Positions 13,751-43,590 of a stretch of 64,000 nt of DNA are shown here, piece after piece. Position numbers and translations under genes: made by a program. The DNA lies in assembly GCA_963741925.1 (NCBI GenBank), contig CAVUJU010000002.1, forward strand, positions 595,978-659,977. The letters are read 5' to 3'. The notes under the pieces were generated by a model that was not told the origin of the DNA, ran no database searches, and saw only the letters and a program-made list of their open reading frames with translations. Numbering within the stretch: the stretch's first letter is position 1; the number at the start of each line of letters is the position of its first letter. The DNA is from an uncultured Acidobacteriota bacterium. Its GTDB lineage: Bacteria; Acidobacteriota; Thermoanaerobaculia; Multivoradales; DATKCC01.

Positions 13751-13882
13751 GGCGGCGTCCCTCTCCCCCCGCGAGGGTGGGAGAGGGATCGAGGGTGAGG
13801 GGGGCGGTCCGATGGCGGCGGCGTCCCTCTCCCCCCGCGAGGGTGGGAGAGGGATCGAGGGTGAGGGGGGCGGTCCGGTCTG
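13751..13882. repeat. 2 x 66-bp tandem repeat with internal palindrome, member of the dispersed C/G-rich repeat family
   Basis: ggcggcgtccctctccccccgcgagggtgggagagggatcgagggtgaggggggcggtccg appears twice with period 66. It fills the znuC-znuB intercistronic gap and abuts the znuB-like ATG. Confidence 0.85.
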
Positions 13883-14713
13883 ATGCTCCACCTGCTCTCC
13901 TATGACTTCCTGCGCCATGCGGTCGTGGCCGGCCTGCTGGCCGCCGTGCTCTGCGGCGTCGTCGGCACCTTCGTGGTGGTCAAGCGCCTCGTCTTCCTGG
14001 CGGGCGGCGTCGCCCACGCCGCGTTCGGCGGCCTCGGGGTGTGCTACTTCCTCGGCGTCGACCCCCGCCTCGGGGCGGCGGCGGTGGCGGTGGTCTCGGC
14101 CCTGGCACTGGCCGGGCCGGGGCGCGAGCGCGGGCGCTCCCACGACGCGGTGATCGGCATCCTCTGGGCCGTGGGCATGGCCGTGGGCGTGGTCTTCCTC
14201 TACAAGACTCCGGGCTACGCCCCGAACCTGATGGCCTACCTGTTCGGCAACATCCTGACCGTCGGCGCCAGCGACGTCGCCCTGACGCTGGGCCTGGTGG
14301 TCGTGGTGGTGGCGCTCTTCGCCCTCTTCTTCAAGGAGAGCGTCGCGGTCGCCTTCGACGAGGAGTTCGCGGCGGTGCAGGGCGTGCCGGTGCGCTGGGC
14401 GATGGTCGTCCTGATGCTGCTCGCCGCCCTGTCGGTCGTCTTCCTGATCCAGCTCGTCGGGATCCTCCTGGTGATCGCCCTGCTCACCATCCCGCCGGTG
14501 ATCGGCCTGCGGATCGCCCGGAGCTTCCCGGCCGTGGTCGGCCTGTCGATCGGGATCGGGGTGCTCATGACCCAGACGGGCCTCGCCCTGTCGTACCTCT
14601 ACGACCTCCCCTCCGGCCCGGCCATCGTCCTCGTGGGCGCGGCCCTCCTGGTCGTGGTCGACGTGGCCCGGCGCGCCGGCGCCCGCGGCCGCCGCGTCAG
14701 CGACGTGGGCTGA
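13883..14713 (+). CDS. metal ABC transporter permease (ZnuB-like)
   Basis: 276 aa, eight hydrophobic segments, ABC-3 family architecture. Confidence 0.8.
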   Translation: MLHLLSYDFLRHAVVAGLLAAVLCGVVGTFVVVKRLVFLAGGVAHAAFGGLGVCYFLGVDPRLGAAAVAVVSALALAGPGRERGRSHDAVIGILWAVGMAVGVVFLYKTPGYAPNLMAYLFGNILTVGASDVALTLGLVVVVVALFALFFKESVAVAFDEEFAAVQGVPVRWAMVVLMLLAALSVVFLIQLVGILLVIALLTIPPVIGLRIARSFPAVVGLSIGIGVLMTQTGLALSYLYDLPSGPAIVLVGAALLVVVDVARRAGARGRRVSDVG

Positions 14714-14825
14714 AGAGCCCTCCCGCGGCCTCGGCGGCCCGCCGCGCGGCGCCGCGCCCTCGTCCGGCGCCCCGTGCAACACTTTTCCGGCGGCACCTGT
14801 ATACCCCGGTAGAGAGGAGAGCCGG

Positions 14826-15419
14826 GTGATCCCAGGGGACTGGACCGCAACCGCCGTCGAACGGGCGGCGAAGGAAGAGGAGGCCGGCGGCTTCGACGAG
14901 ATCGTCCGGCGCCACGAGCGGCAGGTGCTCGGCCTCGCGCGCTGGCTCCTCTCGCGGCCGGAGGACGCCGAGGACGCGGCGCAGGAGGCCTTCTTCCGCC
15001 TCTACCGGGCTCTGTCCCGGAGAGGGAGCCGGCTCGACCCGGAGCGGCCCCTCGCCCCGTACCTCTACCGCGTGACGGTCAACGTCTGCCGCGACCTCGG
15101 CCGCCGCCGCGGACGCTCCCGGGCGCTCTCGCTGGAAGACGTCCGCGAGGCCGACGCTCCGGCGGATCCGGGGCCGGACCCGGAGAGCGCCGCCGCCCTC
15201 GCCGAGGACCACCGGATCGCCGGCGTCGCCCTGGCCGAGCTGCCGGTCCGCCAGCGGGCGGCGCTGGTGCTCCGCGACGTCCACGGCCTGTCCACCCGCG
15301 AGGTGGCCGAGGCCCTGGGCATCCGGGAGGTCACGGTGCGCACCCAGATCTCCCGGGCGCGGCTCAAGGTCCGGGCGATCCGGGACCGCCTGCTGCGCCG
15401 GGAGGAGGACATGCCATGA
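14826..15419 (+). CDS. ECF (sigma-70 family) RNA polymerase sigma factor
   Basis: Region 2 (EDAAQEAFFRLYRAL) and region 4 HTH (STREVAEALGIREVTVRTQISRARLKVR). GTG start with GAGAGGAGAG SD. Confidence 0.8.
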   Translation: MIPGDWTATAVERAAKEEEAGGFDEIVRRHERQVLGLARWLLSRPEDAEDAAQEAFFRLYRALSRRGSRLDPERPLAPYLYRVTVNVCRDLGRRRGRSRALSLEDVREADAPADPGPDPESAAALAEDHRIAGVALAELPVRQRAALVLRDVHGLSTREVAEALGIREVTVRTQISRARLKVRAIRDRLLRREEDMP

Positions 15420-16132
15420 GAGGTCACCGCTCGCTTCACCCCCGGCGCGGGATCGCGCTCTACGTCGCGGGCGACTTGCCGGAGCGGCGGGCGGCCCGCC
15501 TCGCGCGCCACCTCGCCGGCTGCCCCGACTGCCGCGAGCTCGCCCGGCGCCTCGCGGAAGACCGCCTGGCGCTCGGGCGCCTGGCCGGACAGCCCGTCGA
15601 GGAGCGATCGCTCCGCCGCGTGCGAGCCGGGGTGGCCGCGCGCATCGGCGGGCTCGAGACGGCCCGCGAACGCCGGTCTCCAGGCGCCGCCCGGCGCCTC
15701 GCGGCGCTGGCCGCCGTCCTGCTCCTGGCGGCGCTCGGCCTGATGATCTGGTCCCCGCCCCGGACCCCTTCCCGGCCCGGCGGGCAGGCGGCCGGACCGC
15801 CCCTCGACCGAATCGCCTCCACGGCCCCGAGCCCGCCGGTTCCCGAGACGGCCGGCCCGGTTGCCGCGCAGCCTCCGCCATCCGCGGGCCACCCTGCGCC
15901 CGAGGCGAGACGGCCGGCCCCGGCGCCGGCGCCCGCCCCGCGCCCGGGCACCGCCGTGACGCCTGCGCCCTCCGGAGCCCACCGCCGCCCCCGCCGCCGC
16001 GCCGCCGCCGCGCCGCCCGCGTCTCGACCTTCGGAGCCCCTGGTGATCCAGGTGGTCTCCGATCATCCCGACATCGTCTACTACTGGCTCGCCGAGCCCG
16101 AGGAGACTCACCGTGAGAGCACGTCCAGGTAG
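15416..16132 (+). CDS. anti-sigma factor (ZAS-type HxxxCxxC, single TM)
   Basis: ATGA overlap with the sigma gene. HLAGCPDCRE motif, then a TM helix LAALAAVLLLAALGLMIW, then a Pro/Ala-rich region. Confidence 0.65.
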   Translation: MRGHRSLHPRRGIALYVAGDLPERRAARLARHLAGCPDCRELARRLAEDRLALGRLAGQPVEERSLRRVRAGVAARIGGLETARERRSPGAARRLAALAAVLLLAALGLMIWSPPRTPSRPGGQAAGPPLDRIASTAPSPPVPETAGPVAAQPPPSAGHPAPEARRPAPAPAPAPRPGTAVTPAPSGAHRRPRRRAAAAPPASRPSEPLVIQVVSDHPDIVYYWLAEPEETHRESTSR

Positions 16133-16985
16133 GACCGTCATCGTCGCCGTCGCCGCCATCGCCGCCGCAGCCTTCGCCCTCGCGCCGGGCACGCGGGCGG
16201 CCGCAGCGCAGGAGAACCCGAAGCCCGACGCCCGGAGCGCCGCCCCCGAGGCCGGTCAGGAGGCCGGTCAGGAGCCCGGTCAGAAGGCGGGAGAGCCCGT
16301 CGGCCAGGAGATCGTCCGGATCGAGCACGCCAACGTCGAGGAGCTGCCGCCGGTGCTGCGGATCTTCCACGTCCACGCCCAGGCGCACCCGAGCCTGGGC
16401 ATCCTCACCCTCGACGGGCCGGCGGACCAGGTCGCGGCCGCCGCGGCCGCCGCCCGCGAGCTCGACGTCGCCCCGGCCCCGACCCCCAGCCTGGAGGTCA
16501 CGGTCTTCGTCCTCGGGGCGTCGAAGACCCGGCCGCTCTCCGGCCAGGTCCCACCGGCGCTCGAGGAGGTCGCCCACCAGCTCAAGGACGTCTTCGGCTT
16601 TCGCGGCGTCGACCTGATCGACAGCATGTCGGTGCGGGTCCTCGACAGGGGAAGGGGGGGCATCCAGGGCATCCTCTCCGCCGCCGACGGCGTGCCGGCG
16701 CTGCCCTACCGGTTCGGTTTCAACCGCGCGACGCTGGTCGAGCGCGAGGGAACGGAGCCTTCGGTCCGTCTGGCCGGCTTCCAGTTCGAGGCCGCGACTC
16801 CGCACCTGCTCGCCAGTCTGCCGTCGAACCTCGCGCACTCGGAGACCCCGGCGGCCGACTTCCAGACCGAGCTCGCGACCGACCTCGAGCTCCGCGCCGG
16901 CCAGACCGCGGTCGTCGGACGGGCGGCCACCGCCGGCGGCCGCGACGGCCTGATCCTGGTGGTCCGGGCGCAGGTCGTGGAGTGA
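16113..16985 (+). CDS. secreted hypothetical protein in the sigma/anti-sigma operon
   Basis: Signal peptide MRARPGRTVIVAVAAIAAAAFALAPGTRAAAAQ. Confidence 0.4.
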   Translation: MRARPGRTVIVAVAAIAAAAFALAPGTRAAAAQENPKPDARSAAPEAGQEAGQEPGQKAGEPVGQEIVRIEHANVEELPPVLRIFHVHAQAHPSLGILTLDGPADQVAAAAAAARELDVAPAPTPSLEVTVFVLGASKTRPLSGQVPPALEEVAHQLKDVFGFRGVDLIDSMSVRVLDRGRGGIQGILSAADGVPALPYRFGFNRATLVEREGTEPSVRLAGFQFEAATPHLLASLPSNLAHSETPAADFQTELATDLELRAGQTAVVGRAATAGGRDGLILVVRAQVVE

Positions 16986-16988: not shown

Positions 16989-18053
16989 TCAGACGAGGCC
17001 GAGGAGATCGGAGAGGACCCCGTAGGCGGTGGTCGTGAGGTCGGGGTCCTCCTCGACCAGGGTGATCGTGCCCAGGAGGTCGGCGGTGATCGTGAGGGCC
17101 GAGCTCGTGCCGTCGAGCCGGGCGAAGGGGTGTCGCGCGGGGAGCTCCCGGGCGGCCACCCCGGCCCGCACCGCGCCGCCCTCCCTGGCCGCCTCGCAGA
17201 CCATCTTGAGCCGCCGGCCGGAGGCGCGCACGCTCCGCGCCCGCTCGCCCAGGGCGGCGTCGACCACCTCCCGCGCCACCGCCTCCGGCCGGAGCTCCGG
17301 CTCGCCGTCCTCGACCAGCAGAACGTTGGCCAGGGCGGCGAGCTTGACCGCCCCGTCCCAGCCCTCGAGGTCCGCGGACGGGTCCGCCTCGGCGATCCCC
17401 AGCGCCCGCGCCCGCTCGAGCGCCGCCTCGAGGCCGAGGCCCTCCTCCATCGCGCCCAGCACCACGTTGGTCGTCGAGTTGAGGACCCCGGCGAGGCGCT
17501 CGACGGCCGCTCCCCGGAGGCCCGACCGCGCGAGGTCGAAGACCGGGGCGCCGTCCATCACGGTCGCCTCGAAACGGAAGAGGACGCCACGCTCGCGGGC
17601 GAGGTCGCGGAGGCTCCGGTAAGCCCACGCCACCGGCCCCTTGTTCGCCGAGACCACGTGCCGGCCGCGCTCGAGGGCCGAGCGCACCCGGCCGATCGCC
17701 GCCGCGCCGCGGCCGGCGACGTCGAGCGGGGTCATCTCCACCAGGACGTCGTAGTCGCCCTCGGCGACCGCGCGCTCGCCGTCGAGCTCCGAGAACGCCG
17801 GATGCGCCGGCGTGAAGCCGCCGGCCTCGTAGGCGGCGAGGGCCGCCGCCAGGTCGAGCCCCGCCGGGTCGGCCAGGGCGCCGTGGGCGCCGGTCGCGAT
17901 CCCCACCACCCACAAGTCGAGGCCCGCGAGGGCCGGATGCTCGCCCCGGTGGACGAGGAGACGGGCCACCTCCCGGCCGACGTGGCCGAAGCCCAGGAAG
18001 AGCGCGCGGAGCGGGCGGGCGGGAGCGGCGCTCGAACCCGGAGGCGGGCTCAC
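16989..18053 (-). CDS. hom: homoserine dehydrogenase
   Basis: NAD-binding LRALFLGFGHVGREVARLL, plus SANKGPVA and GVLNSTTNVVLG motifs. GTG start overlaps the upstream stop. The track ORF extends further but its N-terminus is low-complexity. Confidence 0.8.
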   Translation of the reverse strand: MSPPPGSSAAPARPLRALFLGFGHVGREVARLLVHRGEHPALAGLDLWVVGIATGAHGALADPAGLDLAAALAAYEAGGFTPAHPAFSELDGERAVAEGDYDVLVEMTPLDVAGRGAAAIGRVRSALERGRHVVSANKGPVAWAYRSLRDLARERGVLFRFEATVMDGAPVFDLARSGLRGAAVERLAGVLNSTTNVVLGAMEEGLGLEAALERARALGIAEADPSADLEGWDGAVKLAALANVLLVEDGEPELRPEAVAREVVDAALGERARSVRASGRRLKMVCEAAREGGAVRAGVAARELPARHPFARLDGTSSALTITADLLGTITLVEEDPDLTTTAYGVLSDLLGLV

Positions 18054-19332
18054 CGGCCGGCCCGCTCCAGCGCGCCGGAGGCGCTCGCCGCCGCGCCCAC
18101 CGTCCCGGCGATCTCGGCCACCCCCGCGACCAGGCGGTCCACCTCCTCGCGGGTCGTGTAGAGGGAGATCCCGGCGCGCAGCACGCCGCCCCGCTCGGCC
18201 AGGCCCAGGGCCTCGATCGGCCGGGGGGCGTAGAAGTCGCCGTCCCAGACCAGGACCCCGCGCTCTCCCAGCCGCCGGGCCGCATCGAGGGGCGTCACGC
18301 CGTCGATCGTGATCGAGACCGTCGGCGCTCTCCTCCCGGCACCGAACCCCGGCCCGTGGACGGTGACGCCCCGGATCCGCCCGACCCGGCCGGCGTAGTC
18401 GCGGGCCAGGCCGTGCTCGTACTCCGAGATGGCCGCTACGCTCGAGACGATCCGGGCGCGGAGCGACTCCCCCTCGCCCCAGGACGCGAGGTACTCCACC
18501 GCCGCGGCCACGCCGCAGAGCGCCGCGTGGTTCAGGGTGCCGGTCTCGATCCGGTACGGGGCCTCGGCGTCGTGGACGCGGAGGCGGTCGCAGGCGAGCT
18601 CCTCGAGGAACCCCGGCCGGGTGTACAGGATGCCGACGTGAGGGCCGTAGAACTTGTAGGCCGAGCACAGGAGGAAGTCCGGGGCGAGCGCCGCCACGTC
18701 GAGGGGGAAGTGGGGCGCGTAGTGGACCGCGTCGACTACGAGCCGGGCGCCCACCGACCGGCAGAGGTCGGCGACGGGGGCGAGGTCGGTGACCGTGCCC
18801 AGGGCGTTCGAGGCGAGGCCGGCCGCCACCAGCCGGGTGCGCGGGCCGACGCTCGCGGCGAAGCCTTCGGGATCGAGCGTGCCGTCGGGCCGGAGCGCCA
18901 CCTCGCGCACCGCGACACCCCGCTCCTCGAGCCCGAGCCACGGGCCCCGGTTGGCCTCGTGGTCGAGCGCGGTGACCACCACCTCGTCGCCCTGCGCCAT
19001 CCGCCGGCCCAGGGCGTGGGCCAGGGAGTACGCGAGGCTGGTCATGTTCTGGCCGAAGGAGATCTCTCGCCAGGAAGGCGCCCCGAGGAAGGCGGCCATG
19101 GCCCGGCGGGCCTCGAGGATCCGCTCGTCGGACTCCCGGGAGGTCGCGAACTGGCCATGGGTGTTGGCGTTCGAGCGCCGGTAGTAGCCCGAGACCGCCT
19201 CGATCACCGCGGTCGGCACCTGCGTGCCGGCGGGGCCGTCGAGGAAGGCCAGGGGGCGTCCGGCGAGGGTGCGGGAGAGCGCCGGGAAGTCCTCCCGGGC
19301 GCGGAGCGCGTCGCGTTCGGTGAAGGCCATGA
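18050..19332 (-). CDS. class V aminotransferase, cysteine desulfurase (SufS/CsdA-like) family
   Basis: Starts MAFTERDALRAREDFPAL and carries the PLP-lysine context SAYKFYGPHVGILY. The real start ATG at 19332 lies downstream of the repeat-encoded N-terminal extension. Confidence 0.75.
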
Positions 19333-19337
19333 CGGGC

Positions 19338-19344
19338 GATTGTA
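19338..19344 (-). promoter_or_regulatory. -10-like GGTACAATCG upstream of the desulfurase-family gene
   Basis: ggTACAATcgcccgtc ATG, with no SD in between. Confidence 0.35.
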
Positions 19345-19430
19345 CCGATCGGATCGCCCCCTCACCCTCGGTCCCTCTCCTCCCCGTGAGGGTGAGGAGA
19401 GGGTCGGGGTGAGGAGGGGTGGTCTGAGGC
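19338..19430. repeat. copy of dispersed C/G-rich palindromic repeat family
   Basis: ggatcgccccctcaccctcggtccctctcctccccgtgagggtgaggagagggtcggggtgaggagg sits immediately upstream of the desulfurase start. Confidence 0.7.
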
Positions 19431-19439
19431 GAAGCCTCG

Positions 19440-20750
19440 CTAGACATCTAGCTTTCGCAGCCAGCGGCCGAAGCCGGCGTCGAGCTCGGCCCAGTCCCGG
19501 CCAAGGCTCGCCCGCAGCGCCGCCGGCCCGCCGTCGCCGCCGGCGGCGATCGCGGCGAGGTAGCTCCGGAAGCCTCGGGCCAGCGCCTCGTCCCCGCCGT
19601 CGAGGAGGTAGCGGACGAAAAAGGCGCTCTCGGCGTAGGCATCCTCCCGCAGGCCGGGATCGACGATCTCTCGCCAAGAGAGGCCGGTGAGCTCCGCGAG
19701 CGGCGGCAGCCGCCCGCGGTTCAGGAGCCTGGTCAGCCGACCGAGGGCGGCGTAGGCCCCCTCCGTGGTCACGGTGATCTCGATCCGGTCCCGTCCCGCG
19801 GCGCTCGAGGCCTTGCGCTCGCTCACCGACTCCTCGCCTCCGAGGCTCCCCGGGAGGAGCCGCCCCGCGGCGTCCACCCGCGAGTCGCCCAGGTCGTCGG
19901 CCAGGCCCTCTTCGAGCCAGGGCGGCGTTCGCGGGCCCAGGGCGCGGCCGTTGATCAGGTGGGTGAGCTCGTGGACGAGGAGGGCGCTCACCTGCCAGTC
20001 CTTCTTGCCCTCGGCGAAGAGCGCCGCCACCCCGAAGCCCGCGTGCCCGCCCTCCTCGAGGCCGGCGTAGGCCAGGTCGCCGGAGGCGAAGGCCCGGTAG
20101 TCGGCCTCGCGGGAGAAGAGGACCACCGCCTGGCCGGCCGCCGAGCCCGAATCGAGCCCGTAGCGGCTCCGGTACGTCGCCTCGAGGCCCGCGGCGACCG
20201 CCTCCAGACGCCCGAGGAGCTTGGAATCCCCGACGTCGGTATAGACGGCGTACGGACCGAGCTCGCGGCGGGTGTCCTCTCCGGGCAGGGCGGCGAGGGC
20301 CCGCGCCAGGATCTCGCGGTCCGCCGCCCGCGCCGGCAGGGCGCCGGCCGGGCCCGCGCCGCCCGCCTCCCGCGCCAGCGGCACCCACCCCTTGAACGCT
20401 CCGTACCGGACCAGCGCCCACCCGCCGCGGCGCTCGACGAGAGGCAGCTCGGACGGGGCGTCGACCACCGCCAGGGCCGCCGCCCGGGCGTCGGGGAGCT
20501 CGTGGAGGGCGGTGCCTTGCGCCACCTCGATCCGGGGCTCCGCGAGGTCGGCGGAGCCGAAGGCCGCGGGGGCGCCCAGAATCTCCGACGGGCTCTCCGG
20601 CGGGCTTGCCGGGGACGGCGCGGCCGACGGGGCGGGCCGCGGCGCCGGGGGCTCGGCCGACGCCGCCGTCTGCGGCGCGAGCGACGCCGACGCGGCGACG
20701 ACGAAGGCCAGTACGGAGCGCCCGGCCCGGCGCCGGCCCCGGCCGGTCAC
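19440..20750 (-). CDS. secreted HExxH zincin-like protein (DUF1570-like putative metallopeptidase)
   Basis: Signal peptide, motif LLVHELTHLINGRAL. The GTG start overlaps the upstream TGA. Confidence 0.5.
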   Translation of the reverse strand: MTGRGRRRAGRSVLAFVVAASASLAPQTAASAEPPAPRPAPSAAPSPASPPESPSEILGAPAAFGSADLAEPRIEVAQGTALHELPDARAAALAVVDAPSELPLVERRGGWALVRYGAFKGWVPLAREAGGAGPAGALPARAADREILARALAALPGEDTRRELGPYAVYTDVGDSKLLGRLEAVAAGLEATYRSRYGLDSGSAAGQAVVLFSREADYRAFASGDLAYAGLEEGGHAGFGVAALFAEGKKDWQVSALLVHELTHLINGRALGPRTPPWLEEGLADDLGDSRVDAAGRLLPGSLGGEESVSERKASSAAGRDRIEITVTTEGAYAALGRLTRLLNRGRLPPLAELTGLSWREIVDPGLREDAYAESAFFVRYLLDGGDEALARGFRSYLAAIAAGGDGGPAALRASLGRDWAELDAGFGRWLRKLDV

Positions 20751-32562: not shown

Positions 32563-34266
32563 TCGTTCGAGCTCTCCGGCGATGACGTTCAGCCCGCCGA
32601 GGGTCACGATGACGTCGGAGACGCTCGCGCCCTCGATCAGGTCGGAGAAGGTGGAGAAGATCGGGAAGCAGGGCGGCCGGACCTTGATCCGGTAGGGGTG
32701 CGACGAGCCGTCCGAGACGATGTAGAAGCCGAGCTCGCCGTTCGCCCCCTCGACCATGTCGTAGCGCTCGCCGGGCGGCACCTGGATGCCGTCCATGATC
32801 AGCTTGAAGTGGTAGATCATGGACTCCATCTGGTTGTAGCACGCCTCCTTCGGCGGCAGCGCCACGTGCGGATCGGAGACGATGTGCCCGCCCTCCGGGA
32901 TGCCCCGGTCGAGGAGCTGGCGGATGATCGAGAGGCTCTGGCGGATCTCGGCGTTTCGCACCCGGTAGCGGTCGTAGACGTCGCCGCCGTGGTAGACCGG
33001 CACCTCCCACTCGACGGTGTCGTAGAGGTCGTAGGGGGCGGCCTTGCGCACGTCGTAGCCCACGCCCGAGGCCCTGAGGCAGGGGCCCGTCCAGCCCCAG
33101 TTGACCGCGTCCTCGGCCGAGATCGCCGCCGTGCCCACCGCGCGCTTCTGCCAGATGCCGTTCTTGTCGACCAGCTTCTCCACGTCGTCGATGAAGGGCG
33201 GGATGATCTCGAGCAGCTTGCGAGCCCGCGCCATGAAGTCGGGCGGCAGGTCCTGGGCGAGGCCGCCGATCCGGCCGTAGGAGACCGTCAGGCGCGCCCC
33301 GGAGCAGGCCTCGAGCAGGCCGTAGATCTCCTCGCGCGGCTGGAAGTAGTACCAGAAGTTGGTCAGGGCTCCGGCGTCGACCAGGGTCGAGCCGTTGCAC
33401 ACGCAGTGGTCCATGATCCGCGAGAGCTCGGAGAGGATCGTGCGCGCCCAGACCGCCTTGGGCGGCGGCTCGATGCCGAGCATCTTCTCTACCGTCCGGC
33501 AGTAGCCGACGTTGTTGATGAACGAGGAGCAGTAGTTCAGGCGGTCGGTGTACGGGATGACGTGCTGCCAGGTGTGCGTTTCGCACATCTTCTCGAAGCA
33601 GCGGTGGAGGTAGCCGATCTCGACCTCGCTCGCGACGATCGTCTCGCCGTCGAGCTCGGCCACCACCCGGAAGGTGCCGTGCATCGCCGGGTGCGAGGGG
33701 CCGATGTTGATGGTCATCCGCTCGAACATGTCGTCGGCGACGCCCTCGGGCACCTTGAGCTTCGGGCGGTAGATCTTGTCCTCGGTCAAGATCCAGCGCC
33801 GGGTGGCGTCGTAGTCCTTCCTCAGCGGATGCCCCTGGAAGGCGTCGTGGGTGAGGATGCGGCGCAGGTTCGGGTGGCCCTCGAAGCGGAAGCCGAACAT
33901 GTCGTAGGCCTCGCGCTCGAACCAGTCCGCCGCCTTCCAGACCGGGATCAACGAGGGCAGCGTCGGGTCGGCCTCGGTGAGGGGCACCTTGAGGCGGAGG
34001 CGCTCGTTCCTGGGCAGCGAGTAGAGGTGGTAGACCGCCTCGAAGCGTTCCTCGCGGTCCGGGTAGTCGACGCCGCAGACGTCGAGGAGCATGTCGAGCT
34101 GGGTCGAGGGGTCGTCGCGCAGGTCGCGCGCGAGCTCGGCCAGCACGTCCCGGCTCACCACCCAGGTCGGCTGGTCCCTGATCTCATCAGGGCCCTCCTG
34201 GGGCAGGATGCTCCCGGCCGGGTACTTGTCGAGCAGAGACGGCGTCTCGATCGCCGTGGGACTCAT
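32560..34266 (-). CDS. nuoCD: NADH-quinone oxidoreductase fused subunits C/D
   Basis: 568 aa. The NuoC part has PNLRRILT..., and the NuoD part has INIGPSHPAMHGTFRV. There are no NiFe Cys motifs. Confidence 0.9.
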   Translation of the reverse strand: MSPTAIETPSLLDKYPAGSILPQEGPDEIRDQPTWVVSRDVLAELARDLRDDPSTQLDMLLDVCGVDYPDREERFEAVYHLYSLPRNERLRLKVPLTEADPTLPSLIPVWKAADWFEREAYDMFGFRFEGHPNLRRILTHDAFQGHPLRKDYDATRRWILTEDKIYRPKLKVPEGVADDMFERMTINIGPSHPAMHGTFRVVAELDGETIVASEVEIGYLHRCFEKMCETHTWQHVIPYTDRLNYCSSFINNVGYCRTVEKMLGIEPPPKAVWARTILSELSRIMDHCVCNGSTLVDAGALTNFWYYFQPREEIYGLLEACSGARLTVSYGRIGGLAQDLPPDFMARARKLLEIIPPFIDDVEKLVDKNGIWQKRAVGTAAISAEDAVNWGWTGPCLRASGVGYDVRKAAPYDLYDTVEWEVPVYHGGDVYDRYRVRNAEIRQSLSIIRQLLDRGIPEGGHIVSDPHVALPPKEACYNQMESMIYHFKLIMDGIQVPPGERYDMVEGANGELGFYIVSDGSSHPYRIKVRPPCFPIFSTFSDLIEGASVSDVIVTLGGLNVIAGELER

Positions 34267-34279
34267 CGGATCACCCTCC

Positions 34280-34610
34280 TCATCCTCGTTCCCTCTCCCG
34301 CTCGCGTCCTACAAACTTGACTCATCTGTCCAGATCTCGGTGGGCCTGGTGGGCTAACGAGGCTCCGCCTCAGACCACAAAGCGGCAAAAGCATCCGAGG
34401 CTTCGTGACCGGTAGCTCCCCCGCCCACGCCGACTGGTTGAGCCTAGCTTCGCCCAAACGGCTACTCCAGAACGTTGGATCCATCGGATCGCCCCCCTCT
34501 CCCTCGATCCCTCTCCCACCCTCCGGGGGGAGAGGGACGCCCCCTCCCGCTCGCGTCCTACAAACTTGACTCATCTGTCCAGATCTCGGTGGGCCTGGTG
34601 GACGAGCATG
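34280..34610. repeat. composite copy of dispersed repeat family (with internal ~55-bp direct duplication) between nuoB and nuoCD
   Basis: The core ggatcgcccccctctccctcgatccctctcccaccctccggggggagagggacgccccctccc and flanks are ~85% identical to 43395-43578. The 3' module ...cgtcctacaaacttgactcatctgtccagatctcggtgggcctggtgg occurs twice (34296-34350, 34546-34602). Confidence 0.8.
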
Positions 34611-36394: not shown

Positions 36395-36470
36395 AACCCG
36401 AGCCTCGGGGAGGGGGCTTCGCCTTTCCCCTCCGGGGGTGGGAAGGGGATCGCCGGGTTGCGGGGGGGAT
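36395..36470. repeat. copy (inverted orientation, degenerate) of dispersed C/G-rich repeat family
   Basis: cggggagggggcttcgcctttcccctccgggggtgggaaggggatcgcc, directly upstream of the HAMP-PP2C gene. Confidence 0.6.
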
Positions 36471-36473
36471 CCG

Positions 36474-38412
36474 ATGAAGCACCGCGCCAGGCGCCTCGTC
36501 TGGCTCGCCGTGATCCTCGCCGCGACCGGCGCCCTCGGCTACCTGGTGGCGATCCCGGTCGCCGGCGCCATCGCCCGCGTCGTCTTCTGGGTGGTCCTCT
36601 GCCTGAGCGCCGCCTTCCTGCTCTTCCGCGCCTACCAGCGACTTCTCTGGCACGTCAGCGGCCGCCTCGCCTTCTCCTACTTCCTGATCGGGGTGGTGCC
36701 GATCCCGCTGGCGGCCGTCCTGTTCGTCCTCGTCTGCTACTTCGTCGCCGGCTTCTTCCTCGGCCACCTCTACCGCGACACCCTCCAGGGGCTCGAACGC
36801 CAGGTCGAAGCGGCGGCGGCCCACGCCGGGAGCGGCGGCGAGGGCGAGTCCGCCACCCCGGAGACCGTCGCCTGGGCCGTCTACCGGGACGGGCGCCGGG
36901 TGGCGGGCGATCGGCGGGCGCCGGAGGCCTGGCCGGCGTGGCTCGACACGCTCCCGGCGGACGCGCCGCCGCCCTTCGTCGCCCTCCCCGACGGCTCGAC
37001 GACGCTCGTCGCGACCGCCGCGCAGCCGGGGGGGCGGCGGGCCCTCGCCTTCGTTCCGGGCGACCTGTCGCAGGTGCTCCGCGAGCGTTCCGGGGTCTGG
37101 GTGAGCCTGCTGAGCAACGCCGGGGGAGCCAAGAGCGCCCAGGTGTCGGTGGGCAGCGCCGGCCTCCACGTCCGCCTGGCCCCGGTGAGCGCCGGCGAGC
37201 GGGCCGAGCTCGAAGCCGCCAAGGCCCGCTTCTTCCAGCAGCACCAGGTCTCCGGCGGCTGGCGCGACCGGCCGGTGCTCAGCTGGGTGGAGCTCGGCGA
37301 GCCGGAGCACGACCTGGCGACCGGCGAGGCCGCGGCCGGCGACACCGCCGTGATCCTCACCGCGACGCCGCGGACCCTCGCCGAGCGCCTGTTCTCTCCG
37401 AGCGCGGAGGTGGGCAAGGCGTTCTGGGTGGCCCTGTTCGTCGTCTCGCTCCTCCTGCTCTCGATCTACGCCGTCGCCGAGCTGCTGGCGGTGACCCTGA
37501 TCGTCGGGCTCTCGCGCGCCGTCTCGCGCCTCTACGACGCCACCTCGCGGGTCGCCGCCGGCGACTTCGCGGTGCGCATCCCGGTGCGCCGGCGCGACCA
37601 GGTGGGCGCGCTGCAGCGCTCGTTCAACTCGATGGCCGAGAACCTCCAGGACCTGGTCGCCACCGCCGCCCAGGCCGAGCTCCTCGAGAAGGAGCTCGAC
37701 GATCGCCCGCCAGGTGCAGCAGAGCCTGATCCCCAAGAACCTCCCCGAGGGCGAGGCGGTCGAGTTCTCCACCCTGTTCGAGCCGAGCGCGGCGATCGGC
37801 GGCGACTACTTCGACGTCCTGCGGCTCTCGGACCACGAGCTGGCCGTGGTGGTCGCCGACGTCTCGGGGCACGGCCTGCCGACGGGGCTGCGGATGGCGA
37901 TGGTCAAGGCCGCCCTGGGCATCCTGGTGGTCGAGACCCAGGAGGCGGACGAGATCCTGCGCCGCCTCGACGGGACGGTCCGCTCCGGCGACCCGGGCGG
38001 CGGGGAGTCGCGCTTCTTCGTCACCGCCACCTTCGCCAAGGTCGACTTCCGCGCCGGCCGGGTGGAGCTGACCAACGCCGGGCACCCCCCCACCTATCAC
38101 CTGCGCGACGGCCGGGCCGAGGAGATCCTGCTCCCCGGCTCGCCCTTGGGCGGCCTGGGAACGTCGTACGGCCACCGGACGATCGAGATCGAGGCCGGGG
38201 ATGCGCTCGTCTGGCTCTCCGACGGGCTGATCGAGGCCGCCGACGGGGACGACGAGCCGTTCGGCTACGACGCGGTCCGCGCCGCCCTGGCCGGGCCGTG
38301 CGAGTCGGCGGTCCAGGTGCGCGACCGGTTGCTCGCGGCGGTCGAGGCCCACACGGGCGGCCGCCCGGCCCTCGACGACCGGACGCTGGTGGTCATGCGG
38401 TACCGCAATTGA
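36474..38412 (+). pseudogene. membrane sensor-HAMP-PP2C (SpoIIE-like) phosphatase gene split by a +1 frameshift near 37700
   Basis: Frame A gives TM helices, a periplasmic region and HAMP (...RDQVGALQRSFNSMAENLQDLVATAAQAELLEKELDD) up to 37700. Frame B from 37714 gives the PP2C domain (QQSLIPKNLP...GGDYFDV...ADVSGHG...WLSDGLIEA). Deleting one nt in gacGatcgcc yields the canonical junction EKELDIARQVQQSLIP. Confidence 0.6.
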
Positions 38413-38419
38413 CAGGTCC

Positions 38420-38510
38420 CCCCGCATCCCCTCGGATCGCCCCTCGATCCCCTCGATCCCCTTCCCTCCCTCGCGGGGAGAGAAGGGGACGCCCGCCGCC
38501 CGATCCTTCC
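38420..38510. repeat. degenerate copy of dispersed C/G-rich repeat family
   Basis: ggatcgcccctcgatcccctcgatccccttccctccctcgcggggagagaaggggacgcc, between convergent genes. Confidence 0.6.
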
Positions 38511-38543
38511 GGGCGGCGGGCGGGACGCGGGGGCGGCGGGGCG

Positions 38544-41500
38544 CTACTTCTGCACCTGCGGGGTGGCGGCGGTCCAGACGGTCACCGGCTGGAGGCCGAC
38601 GTTGACCACCTGGACCAGGTAGAGGCCGGGCACCGTGACCGGCACCTCGAGGCTCGCGAGGCCGTCGGTCGAGGAGTCGACCGCGTCGAGCACCTGGCCC
38701 GAGGGGTCGAGCACCAGCAGGCGGAACGGCACGTCGCCGTCGGCCTCGGCCACCACCGCGACGGAGAGCGCGTCGGTGGGCACGGTGAGCCCCGCGGCGA
38801 GCTGCTGGCCGGCGGAGACCTGCCGGGTGTCCGAGGTCGTCTCGCCCGGACCCGACGTCGCCCGGGCGCTCGCGCTGCCGCCCGAGACGCAGAGCTCGTC
38901 CACGTAGGCCCCGCCGGTCACGTTGCGTAGCTCGAAGGTGTGGCTCCCCGCGCCGGCGACGGCGAAGGTCGCCGTGGCGCCGAGCTGGGGATCGCGCAGG
39001 CTTCCGGAGCCGCCCTGGTAGCTGACCGTGCCGGCGAGCTCGCCGTCCAGGTAGACGTCGGCGCTGCCTCCCTTGGTGCTGGTTGCGAACGCGTAGTCGA
39101 GCTCGCCCTGGTCGCTCGCCGAGTCGAAGGCAAAGCTCATCCCGTGTTGCCCGCCCCGGGCGCTCAGCAGCCGGAAGTGCCCGCCGGAGGCGCCGGCGTC
39201 GTTCACCGTGTGCCAGCCGCCGTCGTAGGCCAGGTGCGGGTCGTCGTCCTCGAAGCAGGTGGGCGGCGACGGCTCGACCGTGATGGTCGCCGTGGCGGCG
39301 TTCTGACTCCGGGCGTCGTGGGAGTCGGTGACCGTCAGGCTGGCCCGGAAGGTCCCTTCCTCCTGGTAGGTGTGGGAGACCGTGGGCGTCGCCTGGGTCA
39401 CCGGGGCGCTCTCGTCGCCGAAGTCGAAGGTGTAGCTCGCGACCGAGTCGCCCGGGTCCGGATCGCTCGAGCCGGAGGCGTCGAAGTCGACCGTCAGCGG
39501 GACGGAACCGGCCGTCGGCGAGGCGGCGAGCGCCGCCAGCGGCGGGGTGTTCGGGGCGCAGCTCGCGTTGTCCTGGACCGTCAGGGAGCCCTGGTACACG
39601 AGCCCGTCGGGCATCTCGTCGACCGTCGCCGCAGCGCCGCCCACCGGCGTGTTCGCCGCTTGCACCGCGGCCGCGTTGAAGCCGGTGATCGTGTCGCCGG
39701 GCGCCAGCCCGAGGTCGGCGATCGGCACCACGATGACGACGGCGCCGTGGGCCGCGTCGTAGAAGCTCGCCGGATCGGCCGGCTTCTCGCTGCCGCTCGC
39801 GACGAAGCGGCCGTCGACGCCGCCCGAGGTGTTCGGCGAGGCGACGTAGGACTGGAAGGCCGGGGCGAGCGGCGACGTCGCCTCGAACACCATGCGCACG
39901 CCGTGGACCTGGCCGTCGGGCTCCTTGAACGAGACGTACCAGTACGAATCCGGCGGCTGCGGGACCTGGCCCGGATCGGTGTCGAGCTGGAAGCGCAAGG
40001 CGATCCGGCCGTCGGCGGCGAAGGGCTGGGCCACCTGGAGCGACTTGAGGTCGGTTCCCGGCGTGGCGGTGAGGCTGTCGCCGCCGGCGTCGGTGAGGAG
40101 GGTCGGGCCCGGCGGGTCGCAGACGCTCACCGTCTGGCCGCCGGCGACCTCGAGGACCGCCTCGTTGCTGGCGGCTCCCTCGCCCTGGGCGTTGACCGCG
40201 ACCACCTGGTAGTAATAAGCCGGCTCCGACGGGTCGACGGCGGCGTCCTGGTAGCCGGTCTTGTCGCCGCCGACGGTGGCGAGCAGGCTTTCGGCGCCCG
40301 AGGCGGTGCCGCGGTAGACCTCGTAGGCTGCGATGTCTGCGCCGCCGTCGTCCGGAGCGTTCCAGGCGAGGTCGGCCTTGGCGGCCGTGCGCGTGCCGGC
40401 GAGGTACGGAGCGCCGGGCACCGCCGGTTCGACCGGGTCGAAGCGGGCGAAGAGCGGCTTGCCGCCGGTCTGGCGCGCCACGCGCTGGTACGCGACGAAG
40501 TCGTTCGCCGCGCCGCCGCTCTCGATGCAGGTGTCGCTCACGCAGCCGTCGTCGTAGCCGAAGAGCACGCGGCCGTGGTCGTCGATCGTCACCTCGTTGA
40601 AGTCGAGGAGGTTGCGGTTCGGGTTGCCGCCGCCGCTGTTCCAGATGCCGCCCGCGCCCTGCACCGGATCGCCCGGCGTGGCGTTGACCGTGGTCCAGGT
40701 GCGGCCGCCGTCGTAGGTGGTGGCGATGAACAGGTACCAGCTCCCGGGGAAGTCCAGCGACTCGTGGTTACCCGCCGCGTCGGTACCCAGGAAGCCGCAC
40801 GCGGCGCGGCCCGCGTCGCCGGCCACCGCCTCGGGGAAGACGGCGTTGATCACGCCCACCGCGGCGCCGAGGTCGGTGTCGTCGCTCCACGTGGCGCCGT
40901 GGTCGTGGCTCACCGCCACGTGCACGTGGTGCTCCGGCCCCTGGCCGTCGACGTAGCACTCGTAGACGGTGTCGTCGGCGTCGATGGCGATCGACGGGTC
41001 GGTCGAGCCGCCGGCGAAGGACTGGCTCTCCGGGATCAGGAACTGGCTCCAGGTGAGCCCGGCGTCGAGGCTGACCACGCCGCCCTGATGATCGCCGCAC
41101 TGGGGCACCGGGACGTAGACCGCGCCGTCGGGGCCGACCTTGACGTGGCCGTGGAGGCCGCCGCAGTCGGTGACGGCGATGCCGTCGTAGATCGGCACGC
41201 CCGGCTCGAAGCTGGCGCCGCCGTCGTCGCTCCGCTGGCAGAAGGCGGGGCCGACGGCGTCCTGCGAGCAGTAGTACAGGGCGTTCGGGTAGGCCGGGTT
41301 GGGCACCGGGACGAGGGCCGGGTACGGCCCGGTCCCGAGGGTCTGGTGATCCGCGCCGCCGTTGGGCGGCGCCGCCGAGGCCTGGATCCAGCTCGCGCCG
41401 TCGTCGTCGCTGTAGGCGAAGAGCGCCTCGGCGCCGGTGGTCTGCATGGACTCGAAGGTGCGGCCGGTCACCTGGTCGGTGTGGAGGATCGGATCGAGGG

Positions 41501-42353
41501 TGGTGGTGCCGACGATCGACGGCGAGACGTTGGTCCACTCGGCCGGCCCGGCCGCGGGCAGCGGCGGCGTGCGCAGCTCGGGCGGCGTCACGCGGAAGGT
41601 GTCGAGCGACGAGAGCGTCAGGACGTTGCCGGTCGCGGGGTTGAACCCGATGCTGAGCTCGCCGGAGCCGCCGTTCGCCGCCGAGCCCTCCGGCGGGAAG
41701 AAGTTCTGGTAGCGCGGCACGCCCGGCGCGGTGGGCGTCGCCTGGCCGAACGAGCTGTCGCCGGCGACGGCCACGCCGGCGACCAGCTCGGCGGTGACGC
41801 TCACCGTCTCGCCGCTGGGCGTGTACGGCACGACCTTGACGGTGAACGTCCGGGTGCCGCCCGACGTCCGGAGACTCGTCTTCTCCGGGTTCGCGGTGCT
41901 GGCGCTCTGGCTCCGCGCGGCCTGCGAGCCGTCGGTGCCGGTCACCGTCCCGTCGTAGACGTAGAGGTCGTAGTCCGAAGCGCCGGTGCCGGTGTCGCCC
42001 CAGCTCAGCGTGATCTGGACGAGCTCGCCCGGATGGGTGTCCGCGAAGTCGCTCGGCAGGGCGACGGTCAAGGCGAAATCGTCGCACGGCTGGACCGGGT
42101 TCGAGCACTCGGGCCCGCTGTCGAGGAGGGGGACCGGGGTCGGGTTGGCGAGCGGGAACGGCCCGGCGGTGTACGTCACGGGGCCGGAGGTGTCGGTCAG
42201 GGTGCCGCTCGCGGGGGTGGCCGCGCGGGCCGCCGGCGCGAGCAGGAGGCAGGCGAGCACCGGGGTGGCGAGCCACCCGGGGATCGCGGATCGGTGAAGG
42301 CGACGAGCCGGTCGAGACGGCGGTCGTTGGCAGGTGTGCGTCATGTGCGTCAT
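38544..42353 (-). CDS. large secreted multidomain protein: BNR/Asp-box repeats plus FN3 and PKD domains
   Basis: Signal peptide. Asp-box SxDxGxTW motifs (SDDDGASW, SDDGGASF, SLDAGLTW, SHDHGATW, YDGGRTW). An FN3-like segment (AWNAPDDGGADIAAYEVYRG...YYYQVVAVN) and a PKD-like segment (VDFDASGSSDPDPGDSVASYTFDFGD). Confidence 0.6.
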   Translation of the reverse strand: MTHMTHTCQRPPSRPARRLHRSAIPGWLATPVLACLLLAPAARAATPASGTLTDTSGPVTYTAGPFPLANPTPVPLLDSGPECSNPVQPCDDFALTVALPSDFADTHPGELVQITLSWGDTGTGASDYDLYVYDGTVTGTDGSQAARSQSASTANPEKTSLRTSGGTRTFTVKVVPYTPSGETVSVTAELVAGVAVAGDSSFGQATPTAPGVPRYQNFFPPEGSAANGGSGELSIGFNPATGNVLTLSSLDTFRVTPPELRTPPLPAAGPAEWTNVSPSIVGTTTLDPILHTDQVTGRTFESMQTTGAEALFAYSDDDGASWIQASAAPPNGGADHQTLGTGPYPALVPVPNPAYPNALYYCSQDAVGPAFCQRSDDGGASFEPGVPIYDGIAVTDCGGLHGHVKVGPDGAVYVPVPQCGDHQGGVVSLDAGLTWSQFLIPESQSFAGGSTDPSIAIDADDTVYECYVDGQGPEHHVHVAVSHDHGATWSDDTDLGAAVGVINAVFPEAVAGDAGRAACGFLGTDAAGNHESLDFPGSWYLFIATTYDGGRTWTTVNATPGDPVQGAGGIWNSGGGNPNRNLLDFNEVTIDDHGRVLFGYDDGCVSDTCIESGGAANDFVAYQRVARQTGGKPLFARFDPVEPAVPGAPYLAGTRTAAKADLAWNAPDDGGADIAAYEVYRGTASGAESLLATVGGDKTGYQDAAVDPSEPAYYYQVVAVNAQGEGAASNEAVLEVAGGQTVSVCDPPGPTLLTDAGGDSLTATPGTDLKSLQVAQPFAADGRIALRFQLDTDPGQVPQPPDSYWYVSFKEPDGQVHGVRMVFEATSPLAPAFQSYVASPNTSGGVDGRFVASGSEKPADPASFYDAAHGAVVIVVPIADLGLAPGDTITGFNAAAVQAANTPVGGAAATVDEMPDGLVYQGSLTVQDNASCAPNTPPLAALAASPTAGSVPLTVDFDASGSSDPDPGDSVASYTFDFGDESAPVTQATPTVSHTYQEEGTFRASLTVTDSHDARSQNAATATITVEPSPPTCFEDDDPHLAYDGGWHTVNDAGASGGHFRLLSARGGQHGMSFAFDSASDQGELDYAFATSTKGGSADVYLDGELAGTVSYQGGSGSLRDPQLGATATFAVAGAGSHTFELRNVTGGAYVDELCVSGGSASARATSGPGETTSDTRQVSAGQQLAAGLTVPTDALSVAVVAEADGDVPFRLLVLDPSGQVLDAVDSSTDGLASLEVPVTVPGLYLVQVVNVGLQPVTVWTAATPQVQK

Positions 42354-42566
42354 GGCGGAGTCTCCTGGTCGGTGCTGGAGTCTTCTTGCGTCCCGGCGAG
42401 CGGGGGGCACCGGCTCACACGGCCGAAGCCCCGCCGCCGCGGCGGGCGGATCTCACACCACGAGCTTCGAGCCTTCCGTCGCTCCGGACCATCCGGAGCT
42501 TCTCCTCAGAGAGGATGGGGAGATTCCCCCAGGGGCCGCCCCGTCGGCCTGCCGGACGGCGGCGTC

Positions 42567-43295
42567 CTACAGGGTCGTGGCGATGCGGGTGGGCTGGGCG
42601 ATGCCCAGGGTCGTGAAGATGTGGCGGATGTAGGTGCGGGTCTCGCGGAAGGGAGGGACGCCCCGGTAGCGCTCCACCGTGCCCTCGCCGGCGTTGTAGG
42701 CGGCGAGGGCCAGGGAGAGGTCGCCGTCGAAGCGGTCGAGCAGCCACCCCAGGTAGCTCGCCCCGGCGTCGACGTTGGCCGCCGCATCGAAGACGTCGGC
42801 CGCGCCCAGGCCGAAGCGCCGGGCGGTGGCGGGCATGAGCTGCATCAGGCCGCGGGCGCCCTTGGCCGAGAGCGCCCGCACGTCGAACGCGGACTCGGCC
42901 CGCACCACGGCGGCCACCAGCTCGGGGTCGAGGCCGTGCCGGCGCGCCGCCTGGTAGATCTCACGGCCGTAGGGGACCTGGGGCACGGGCAGCCCGTCGG
43001 AGAAGCGCCAGCTCCGGTCCGGCGCGGCGGCGGACGGCTCCGGCGGATCGGGCGGCACCCACTCGTCGTCGACGACGTTGGCGACCCGGTCGAGGGGCAG
43101 GGTGATCCGGCCGCCCGCGCGCAAGGTGAGGCGGGCCGAGTCCCCGCGCGTCTCGTAGGAGGTGACCTTGTAGAAGCGGCCGTCGTCGAGCACCACGAGC
43201 TCGGCCCGGAGCGCCGGGGCGAACAGACACAGGGCGAGGCCCGCGCTCAGCACGCGGGTCACCCACCGTCCCCTTCGCCTCGTCGCTTCGCTCAT
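42567..43295 (-). CDS. lytic transglycosylase (SLT domain) with signal peptide
   Basis: ESAFDVRALSAKGARGLMQLMPATA...AYNAG matches the Slt catalytic motif ES...S..GA.GLMQ. Confidence 0.75.
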   Translation of the reverse strand: MSEATRRRGRWVTRVLSAGLALCLFAPALRAELVVLDDGRFYKVTSYETRGDSARLTLRAGGRITLPLDRVANVVDDEWVPPDPPEPSAAAPDRSWRFSDGLPVPQVPYGREIYQAARRHGLDPELVAAVVRAESAFDVRALSAKGARGLMQLMPATARRFGLGAADVFDAAANVDAGASYLGWLLDRFDGDLSLALAAYNAGEGTVERYRGVPPFRETRTYIRHIFTTLGIAQPTRIATTL

Positions 43296-43382
43296 CGCTC
43301 GCTGCTTGTAACTCGGTTCGGCCTCGCTCTTATTCTACCTAGGAAGCTTCGCCTCGAGCCGACGCGGCGTCTGCAACACCTC

Positions 43383-43590
43383 CGGCTTTGTCGATCGCTG
43401 CTCCCCCGCCCACGTCCAGCGATCGAGCTTGCACGCAACCCAACGGCTACTCCAGACCGCTGGATTCATCGGATCGCCCCCCTCACCCTCGGTCCCTCTC
43501 CCACCCTCCGGGGGGCGAGGGACGCCCCCTCCCGGGTCTCAACTCCGCTCGAAAACTTGACTCGCCTGTCACGAAGTGCGGCTTTGTCGA
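43383..43590. repeat. ~184-bp copy of the composite dispersed repeat flanked by a 12-bp direct repeat (C/G)GGCTTTGTCGA (MITE-like)
   Basis: Direct repeats at 43383-43394 and 43579-43590. The interior is ~85% identical to 34412-34600. Confidence 0.6.

Follow-up and report, generated by a model that had tools for sequence, protein, structure and literature searches.

Between the genes of a 64,000-nucleotide stretch of DNA from an uncultured Acidobacteriota bacterium of the Thermoanaerobaculia (contig CAVUJU010000002.1, positions 595,978 to 659,977; hereafter the window) lie eight copies, at six intergenic loci, of a G/C-rich module of 60-70 nt for which the chance expectation is 0. We consider this family to be probably not a regulatory RNA but a dispersed non-coding DNA repeat that is specific to its lineage and belongs to the BoxC / PIT / TM "intrastrand triplex motif" class; its spread into the spacers between the genes of this genome is recent. 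The core of the module comprises a C-arm, CCCTCTCCC, a complementary G-arm, GGGAGAGGG, and a mirror G-arm, GGGTGAGGG. We propose that the first two arms would form a 12-13-bp hairpin in single-stranded or supercoiled DNA, and that the mirror arm would fold back into the hairpin's major groove as a purine-motif triplex (G.G-C, A.A-T and T.A-T triads), a step that we infer from sequence rules and that has its in vitro demonstration only in the E. coli relative. The element has multiplied into the intergenic spacers of this Thermoanaerobaculia lineage, as comparison with relatives shows, and, as its own sequence shows, it has grown and decayed locally by slippage and recombination between its own short repeats, with the fold presumably promoting slippage and rearrangement. 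Its effects on genes would be side-effects: insertion may have uncoupled the translation of nuoB and nuoCD, which is coupled in relatives, and may have put a G-rich Shine-Dalgarno-like run, sometimes with its own ATG, before downstream genes.

Occurrence and intergenic placement

A profile search of the window with nhmmer returned exactly eight module copies, all within 13.7-43.6 kb (8 copies in 30 kb), and their alignment in a single orientation gave a 60-nt consensus for the C-rich strand, CATCGGATCGCCCCCCTCACCCTCGATCCCTCTCCCACCCTCGCGGGGGGAGAGGGACGCC. Pattern searches, set against shuffled sequence, matched the 23-mer core with up to three mismatches five times (0.00 expected), the tail motif five times (0.24 expected) and the hairpin three times (0.00 expected). 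A first-pass annotation had described a repeat at six or more loci, always intergenic, in both orientations and sometimes inside operons, and this description held: the module was found at all six coordinates, copies lie on either strand, and all six loci fall in spacers, only about 7% of the 10.5-48.2 kb region being non-coding by a curated gene list. Module-bearing spacers account for 1390 of the 2625 non-coding bases of that region, and none of 14 acidobacterial-type copies was called genic. As to the operons, Pfam matches on the flanking genes confirm an ABC ATPase next to an ABC-3 permease in one case and NuoB next to NuoCD in the other.

The hairpin and its mirror arm

Read along the G-rich strand, a unit that stands alone has the sequence CGGGNGGGGG-CGTCCCTCTCCCCCC-G(C)GA-GGGTGGGAGAGGG-AYCGA-GGGWGAGGGGGG-CGATCCGAT(G/C). 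Its 5' side is made up of a left G-block (CGGGNGGGGG), a pyrimidine arm (CGTCCCTCTCCCCCC) and a 3-4-nt loop, and its 3' side of a complementary purine arm (GGGTGGGAGAGGG), the 5-nt loop AYCGA, a second purine arm (GGGTGAGGGGGG) and the tail CGATCCGAT. The second purine arm is the mirror image of the first with one A-to-T change. The pyrimidine arm and the first purine arm pair as a 12-13-bp hairpin with one nearly fixed mismatch: of 37 copies, 30 have no pair at this position, four have C-G and three have A-T. Pairing extends to 89.9% of cells, as compared to 55-71% when the partner is slid by 1-3 columns, and two neighbouring base pairs have changed in a compensatory manner between the two subfamilies (16 double-change cells, a value as high being reached in 0 of 500 shuffles). 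The internal hairpin proposed in the first-pass annotation is thus partly upheld: nearest-neighbour folding predicts it in most copies, but clearly beyond composition-matched shuffles only for the copy at 19340-19430 (z = -5.0), the other values being -1.1, -1.2, +0.4, +0.1, +0.3 and -2.0. Because shuffles of such a G/C-rich composition fold almost as well, thermodynamics alone is weak evidence.

The third arm is more informative. Every perfect 9-bp pyrimidine/purine hairpin in the window and in all loci fetched by then was collected, and the 9-mer following it (loop of 2-7 nt) was scored for purine-motif triads with the purine arm in antiparallel register. The 3' arms scored at least 7/9 in 155 of 316 strand-wise hairpins, which is approximately every hairpin on one strand, and 9/9 in 134, as compared to only four 5' control arms scoring 8 or more. 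Across 14 different purine arms, the arm's own third arm scores 8-9/9 and those of other classes 3-8, with a few ties between near-identical classes; the Watson-Crick match of the third arm to the C-arm is only 3-8/9. For instance, GGAGAAGGG is followed by GGGATGAGG and GGGGGAAGG by GGATGGGGG, and, in further classes, AGGGGAAGG by GGATGGGGA and GGAAGGGGA by AGGGGTTGC. The window's own copies score 8-9/9 even in their variants, the copy at 19344 pairing AGGAGAGGG with the mirror GGGTGAGGA and a second subfamily pairing GGGAAGGGG with GGGGTTG. In most classes the third arm has T in place of the mirror A, which keeps a T.A-T triad and might spoil an alternative hairpin with the C-arm. When the stem is taken in its extended form, 11 of the 12 positions of GGGTGAGGGGGG mirror GGTGGGAGAGGG, and the remaining one is the same T that is mismatched in the hairpin. 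Since the third arm mirrors its own purine arm across 14 hairpin sequences, the comparison supports a triplex-type constraint acting on DNA.

Absence from syntenic relatives

Proteins 84-93% identical to the window's NuoB were found, the named ones being from Thermoanaerobaculia, and the four contigs with the closest homologues (87-93% identical) are syntenic with the window, sharing the gene order SLT - HAMP/SpoIIE - rubrerythrin-like - NuoB - NuoCD - NuoI-like. In these four relative loci (79 kb) nhmmer found no module copy, the sole match having E = 0.1. The genes nuoB and nuoCD overlap (ATGA) or lie 17 nt apart in the four relatives, whereas in the window they are 355 nt apart, the spacer holding in turn a segment that we call X, a full module, its extension, a second X, a half module and the ATG. 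The nuoCD start codon is orthologously placed (NuoCD has 568 aa both in the window and in the relative L118) and stands in register with the ATG of the module consensus. Three further spacers of the relatives, those on the upstream side of HAMP/SpoIIE and of SLT and on the downstream side of SpoIIE, are likewise without the module. Because the copies are absent from the relatives' orthologous spacers, we take them to be recent lineage-specific insertions and not conserved regulators.

Two longer segments are also specific to the window, 38413-42566, which encodes a 1288-aa PKD/BNR protein, and 43296-47293, which encodes an asparagine synthase and a gene without Pfam match; each carries the module at one border only. 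We considered whether such copies might be attC-like gene-cassette borders and rejected this, as the opposite borders (42411-42566 and 46909-47293) are without the module. The second segment adjoins a conserved XerC/D-type integrase gene (47294..48205). We also note that the HAMP/SpoIIE gene at 36474-38412 has a frame change near 37600-37714, where the third-position GC phase switches and the domains lie in different frames; its orthologue is a single gene of 794-801 aa in L120 and L121 and adjacent 589-aa and 104-aa genes in L119. The frame change is possibly a frameshift, a pseudogene or a sequencing error.

Distribution beyond the window

A scan of a genome collection with the 17-mer CCCTCGRTCCCTCTCCC returned at least 117 loci (given here by L numbers), and most of those listed show the flanks CCCTCA... 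and ...GGGAGAGGGA, for which they had not been selected. Titles among the matches listed name Proteobacteria, Acidobacteriota, Chloroflexota, Bacteroidota, Planctomycetota and others. This breadth across phyla needs caution because most of the matches listed are bins of metagenome-assembled genomes (MAGs), some of them maybe mis-binned. Isolate genomes among the same matches are mostly of Proteobacteria (Stenotrophobium, Caulobacter, Parvularcula), and the one Bacteroidota isolate, Neolewinella persica, has a copy with a partial hairpin only.

A metagenome scan with a lineage-specific 24-mer gave 14 loci. Units with the window's full flanks occur, among the matches listed, only in Acidobacteriota/Thermoanaerobaculia MAGs and in these 14 metagenome contigs, and full-length relatives of the module in several other such MAGs and metagenome contigs stand in unrelated contexts. 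Head-to-tail arrays with periods of 64, 65, 66 and 70 nt were found (L102, L010/L131, L052, L053), and other copies have GATC, GGTC or AGTC in their tails, a terminal ATG being only one variant.

In a gammaproteobacterial MAG (L021, 4081-4481) five head-to-tail copies of a 96-nt unit contain the core motif, so that tandem amplification is not limited to the acidobacterial family. Loci of a Burkholderiales type (among them L004, L005, L013, L022, L040, L046, L059, L066, L068, L074, L079, L080 and L084) have, about 7 nt after the core motif, a second and inverted triplex motif with the arms CCCTTCTCC / GGAGAAGGG and the mirror GGGATGAGG. Such inverted pairs recall the inverted pairs of type A and type B in E. 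coli.

Probable assignment to the BoxC / PIT / TM class

BoxC / PIT / TM(ECO) repeats were described by Bachellier et al. 1999, Hoyne et al. 2000 and Holder et al. 2015 (PMC4666352), and the TM(ECO) pattern is CCCTCNCCC-N3-6-GGGNGAGGG-N3-GGGNGAGGG (PMC4666352). The first loop of our module has 10-11 nt when arms of 9 nt are taken and 3-4 nt with a 12-13-bp stem, and its second loop has 5 nt. When the loops were relaxed to 3-12 and 3-6 nt the pattern matched four times in the window as compared to 0 expected. Aligned with two MG1655 copies at 164.5 kb, the window copies have identical arms, and they also align with Table 1 of Holder et al. 2015 (PMC4666352).

A number of observations weigh against this assignment or against the scenario built on it. 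With its strict loops (N3-6 and N3) the TM(ECO) pattern has 0 matches in the window, and since the relaxed pattern and the triads are found and the strict pattern is not, we assign the module to the BoxC/PIT/TM architecture, which belongs to the broad class II of G/C-rich motifs of Holder et al., and not to strict TM(ECO). The G-rich strand is the sense strand in 7/7 orientable window copies, which is not predicted for a purely DNA-level selfish element. In co-directional contexts across all loci, with crude gene calls based on third-position GC, the wider sample gave 20 sense and 15 antisense copies, and at three loci checked by hand (L113, L077 and L109) the copies are antisense to both neighbouring genes; given these counts we consider the window's sense bias to be weak, and a sense-strand rule, which is not upheld outside the window, was rejected. 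No target duplication, terminal repeats or transposase was found, and it is presence and absence alone that lead us to call the element mobile. The folding energy of most module copies is no better than that of shuffles. Moreover, the copies are kin by descent, and the covariation counts thus represent few independent events within the lineage, and the cross-class test includes loci that were picked with a pattern fixing one hairpin class. Earlier E. coli work cited by Holder et al. (PMC4666352) found replication, transcription and conjugation unaffected in vivo, and for members of this class a triplex in vivo is only an inference.

The individual copies

The strand given for each copy is that of its G-rich strand. 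The spacer between the ABC-ATPase and ABC-3 permease genes (znuC|znuB-like) holds a tandem pair at 13745..13814 (+) and 13815..13885 (+). The first unit has its C-arm at 13759-13767, its G-arm at 13779-13787 and its mirror arm at 13793-13801; the second ends 5 nt before the permease ATG (13883). The tandem duplication had been noted at 13751-13882, rightly so, as the units are 100% identical with a 66-nt period.

The first-pass annotation regarded all copies as one shared module. Of these copies, those at 36406 and 38432 belong to a diverged subfamily and the one at 19344 is a palindromic doublet. The doublet variant, 19341..19445 (no strand assigned; profile match 19341-19425), has the arms CCCTCTCCT / AGGAGAGGG, a fitting mirror arm GGGTGAGGA and a triad score of 9/9, and is followed at 19425-19439 by a short hairpin, TGAGGCGAAGCCTCG, that is also the long-form terminus. 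The genes on its two sides run on the minus strand. One, 18050..19331, whose product has no Pfam match, has its ATG (19329-19331) 11 nt downstream of the doublet; the other, a putative gene upstream of the doublet, was placed at about 19452 from codon-position GC content alone. The second subfamily, with the arms CCCCTTCCC/GGGAAGGGG, comprises two copies. The first, 36406..36479 (+), has the arms CCTTTCCCC / GGGAAGGGG and the third arm GGGTTGCGGGGGGG, and the HAMP/SpoIIE gene starts with this copy's terminal ATG (36474). The second, 38432..38497 (-), has convergent genes on either side and stands at one edge of the 4.1-kb insertion specific to the window (38413-42566), with a GC-rich hairpin after it (38498-38530).

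The nuoB|nuoCD spacer had been entered as one interval, 34280-34610. There is one full copy there, accompanied by a half copy without C-arm and by a 62-nt direct repeat (98% identical). The half copy, 34255..34301 (-), retains the G-arm, loop, mirror arm and tail, its C-arm being deleted, and its terminal ATG (34264-34266) is the nuoCD start codon. The full module (34476-34553) and an extension of approximately 130 nt make up a long form at 34347..34553 (-), the extension showing CGTGGGCGGGGGAGC at 34415-34429 and the hairpin TGAGGCGGAGCCTCG at 34358-34372. The direct repeat is segment X, which contains GACAGATGAGTCAAGTTT and occurs at 34291..34352 (-) and 34540..34601 (-), one before each module of this spacer. 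The remaining copy is again a long form, 43331..43590 (-), consisting of an extension (43331-43460), a module (43461-43544) and a segment X (approximately 43545-43590). The SLT transglycosylase gene is downstream of this copy, and the window-specific 4-kb insertion 43296-47293 has one of its borders here. Products of local rearrangement among these copies are the identical 66-nt tandem, the half copy and a 249-nt duplication.

The long form

The long form combines segment X, the triplex module and a 130-nt extension in approximately 200-270 nt; within the extension the block CGTGGGCGGGGG does not vary, and a GAGGCGGAGCYTC hairpin forms the terminus. The two window examples, 43331-43544 and 34347-34553, are 84% identical over a 135-nt repeat, and both are 82-85% identical to L109 over about 190 nt. 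At 73-85% identity the long form occurs in at least four acidobacterial genomes in unrelated gene contexts, with more copies in L031, L102, L052, L125 and L135 and a partial one in L128. A module is preceded by segment X (GACAGRYGAGTCAAGTTT) at three places in the window and at one in L135. We call the contexts unrelated because blastn of the window against the long-form loci gave, besides the element, only a 64% coding-region match in L001, an 81%, 84-nt match in L061 and a short non-coding match in L003.

Several possible functions of the long form were considered and rejected. A leader peptide (ATGAATCCAGCG...) has low third-position GC as compared to 0.81-0.99 in genes, and one copy has a frame-breaking deletion. 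A structured RNA was rejected on the RNAalifold covariation term, -1.1 kcal/mol for four copies and -0.2 kcal/mol for eight, and the same alignments hold few double changes outside the module hairpin. Neither intrinsic terminators (GC hairpin and T-run) nor sigma-70 promoters (-35/-10 hexamers) were found in 34200-34700 and 43250-43650 (0 sites each), and we therefore dismissed a promoter or terminator in segment X or the module. Rfam at gathering thresholds matched group II intron sequence elsewhere in the window and nothing at the module, and at E<=10 gave only a spurious 17.9-bit match in 43250-43650.

To our knowledge, the spread of BoxC/PIT-type repeats has gone unexplained since the 1990s. 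It is a speculative and rather unlikely idea that the long form is the master, transposition-competent or transcribed form, that is, an undescribed non-autonomous mobile element or small RNA gene with the triplex module as one terminus; if true, it would be a first handle on how such repeats are copied to new sites.

Alternative explanations

A classical non-autonomous transposon, either a miniature inverted-repeat transposable element (MITE) or a REP/REPIN unit mobilised by a RAYT or IS200/IS605-type transposase encoded elsewhere, would account for the difference in presence between close relatives, for a long form 73-85% identical in at least four genomes with unrelated flanks and with a hairpin at or near either end, and for the one REPIN-like palindromic doublet. 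The first-pass annotation had suggested a REP/MITE-like element, of which the REP-like part, a dispersed intergenic palindromic repeat absent from four relatives, stands, and the MITE part was not borne out: besides the internal palindrome there are no terminal inverted repeats, and a target-site duplication is not definable. When 37-41 copies were aligned with their flanks, the ends were conserved and non-complementary (CGGGNGGGGGCG / CGATCCGAT) without flanking duplication, the relatives' spacers being too diverged to define an exact empty site or insertion boundary. Among the part of the window's open reading frames (ORFs) that was scanned no transposase was seen beside any copy, and mobility genes were likewise not found near the E. 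coli copies (PMC4666352). The long forms also diverge as much within the window (84%) as from another genome (84.5%), which speaks against a recent burst. We judge this explanation improbable.

Less probable again is a cis-regulatory RNA, as the first-pass annotation had alternatively proposed, in which a leader or intercistronic hairpin with a G-rich tail would control translation initiation through the Shine-Dalgarno-like run and ATG, or would protect mRNA like REP hairpins. The sense orientation in all seven orientable window copies fits this, as do the three copies whose end coincides with a start codon or lies no more than 5 nt from one (13883, 34266 and 36474), the consensus end ...GGGGGGCGATCCGATG and the GGAGG that stands 8 nt before the nuoCD ATG. 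However, the copies are not conserved at orthologous positions, being absent from the same spacers of four relatives in which the genes are intact and nuoB/nuoCD coupled; the ATG is one tail variant beside GATC, GGTC and AGTC; copies are antisense at L113, L077 and L109 and in 15 of the 35 co-directional cases; no Rfam match was obtained; and the genes beside the copies are unrelated to one another. The mirror rule of the third arm, moreover, makes no sense in Watson-Crick terms, and RNA reportedly does not form purine-motif triplexes (PMC4666352). The structured-RNA proposal is accordingly not supported.

Least likely of all is a G-quadruplex or i-motif in which the G-rich strand (at least four G3 tracts, loops of 1-7 nt) would fold in competition with the hairpin as a DNA/RNA switch, since, even though 7 of the window's 20 canonical G-quadruplex motifs fall in module copies (one in each except the half copy), a need for G tracts alone gives no reason for the A/T positions of the third arm to follow those of the purine arm in 14 classes, the constant presence of the complementary C-arm is left unexplained, and circular dichroism and nuclear magnetic resonance of the E. 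coli relative indicated a triplex (PMC4666352).

Implications and other features of the window

Reading the module as a DNA repeat of the triplex-motif class adds to the range of the BoxC/PIT/TM repeats an acidobacterial lineage of high GC that carries them densely, and the mirror rule across many unrelated arms offers comparative evidence for a conserved three-arm fold and not for a hairpin alone. The 355-nt insertion that would uncouple nuoB from nuoCD and the copies that donate start codons or merge with them are natural experiments. The result is incremental, and what deserves following is the long form, together with the mirror rule across classes.

There is also a practical side, in that the repeats yield spurious ORFs (PREGGRGIEGEGG-type peptides) and over-extended starts (18050..19447) and should be masked in annotation; the peptide SPREGGRGIEGEGGGP, suspected from the outset of being spurious, is a translation artefact. 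Mechanically called ORFs run through module copies at 18050-19447 (-), 34263-34862 (-) and 13116-13883 (+), and automatic annotation is therefore likely to over-extend starts or to call Gly/Arg/Glu-rich proteins.

Other features were noted in passing. A group II intron lies at 49278-51226 (-), where matches to Rfam RF02005 (128 bits) and RF00029 (47 bits) bracket a 554-aa ORF (49383..51047). The right part of the window, of lower GC (61-64%), has three 300-nt repeats that are 99-100% identical (48614-48913, 54456-54755 and 58279-58578) and a duplication, 52983-54185 and 56827-58008, that is 92-93% identical at a spacing of about 3.8 kb, and resembles duplicated large genes or a mobile region. 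The spacer at 10081-10277 contains a 42-nt inverted repeat, 83% complementary with arms 113 nt apart, and the stretch between those arms (10142-10208) is 89.6% identical to non-coding sequence in another Thermoanaerobaculia contig (L003, 1647-1713); it is unrelated to the module and represents a second non-coding element that is conserved. Lastly, a 12-nt tandem repeat (GCCGGTCAGGAG-like, 3-4 units) at 16227-16291 is apparently within a coding region.

Comparison with known repeat families

With MITEs such as Correia/NEMIS, ERIC and Nezha the module shares a non-coding and dispersed character, a size of 60-270 nt and the ability to furnish the 5' ends of genes with start codons or ribosome-binding sites, and it differs from them in that terminal inverted repeats and target-site duplications are not definable. 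Like REP, BIME and REPIN elements it is a short GC-rich imperfect palindrome confined to spacers, including those inside operons, often clustered or in tandem, of lineage-specific sequence and a source of spurious ORFs. In contrast to these it has no conserved GTAG-like 5' tetranucleotide and has a mirror third arm within the unit, and inverted doublets are exceptional (1/8, the copy at 19341-19425). No RAYT was among the 20 window proteins scanned, no systematic RAYT search having been made.

The closest likeness is to BoxC/PIT/TM(ECO). According to Holder et al. 2015 (PMC4666352), TM(ECO) has 3610 occurrences in 262 proteobacterial genomes, all of them between genes; in the MG1655 chromosome it favours neither strand, and it correlates neither with the direction nor with the function of the genes beside it. 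Its presence among close relatives is patchy; it is associated with rearranged loci and genomic variability, forms a triplex in vitro, and has no known function, mobility genes not having been found near the E. coli copies (PMC4666352). The module differs from TM(ECO) in its second loop (5 nt, AYCGA, and not 3), in a stem lengthened to 12-13 positions, of which one is a fixed mismatch, and a mirror arm that is longer to match, in the conserved flanks CGGGNGGGGGCG... and ...CGATCCGAT, in its 64-70-nt head-to-tail arrays, its second subfamily with other arms and its long form of about 200 nt, and in its host, one of the Acidobacteriota with about 70% GC. Shared between them are the three arms, CCCTC[T/G]CCC, GGGAGAGGG and GGGTGAGGG, in the same order, and the recurrent T/G variant in the C-arm. 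Also shared are a strictly intergenic and multi-copy distribution in both orientations with occasional inverted doublets, and a patchy presence in close relatives, at rearranged loci and without associated mobility genes.

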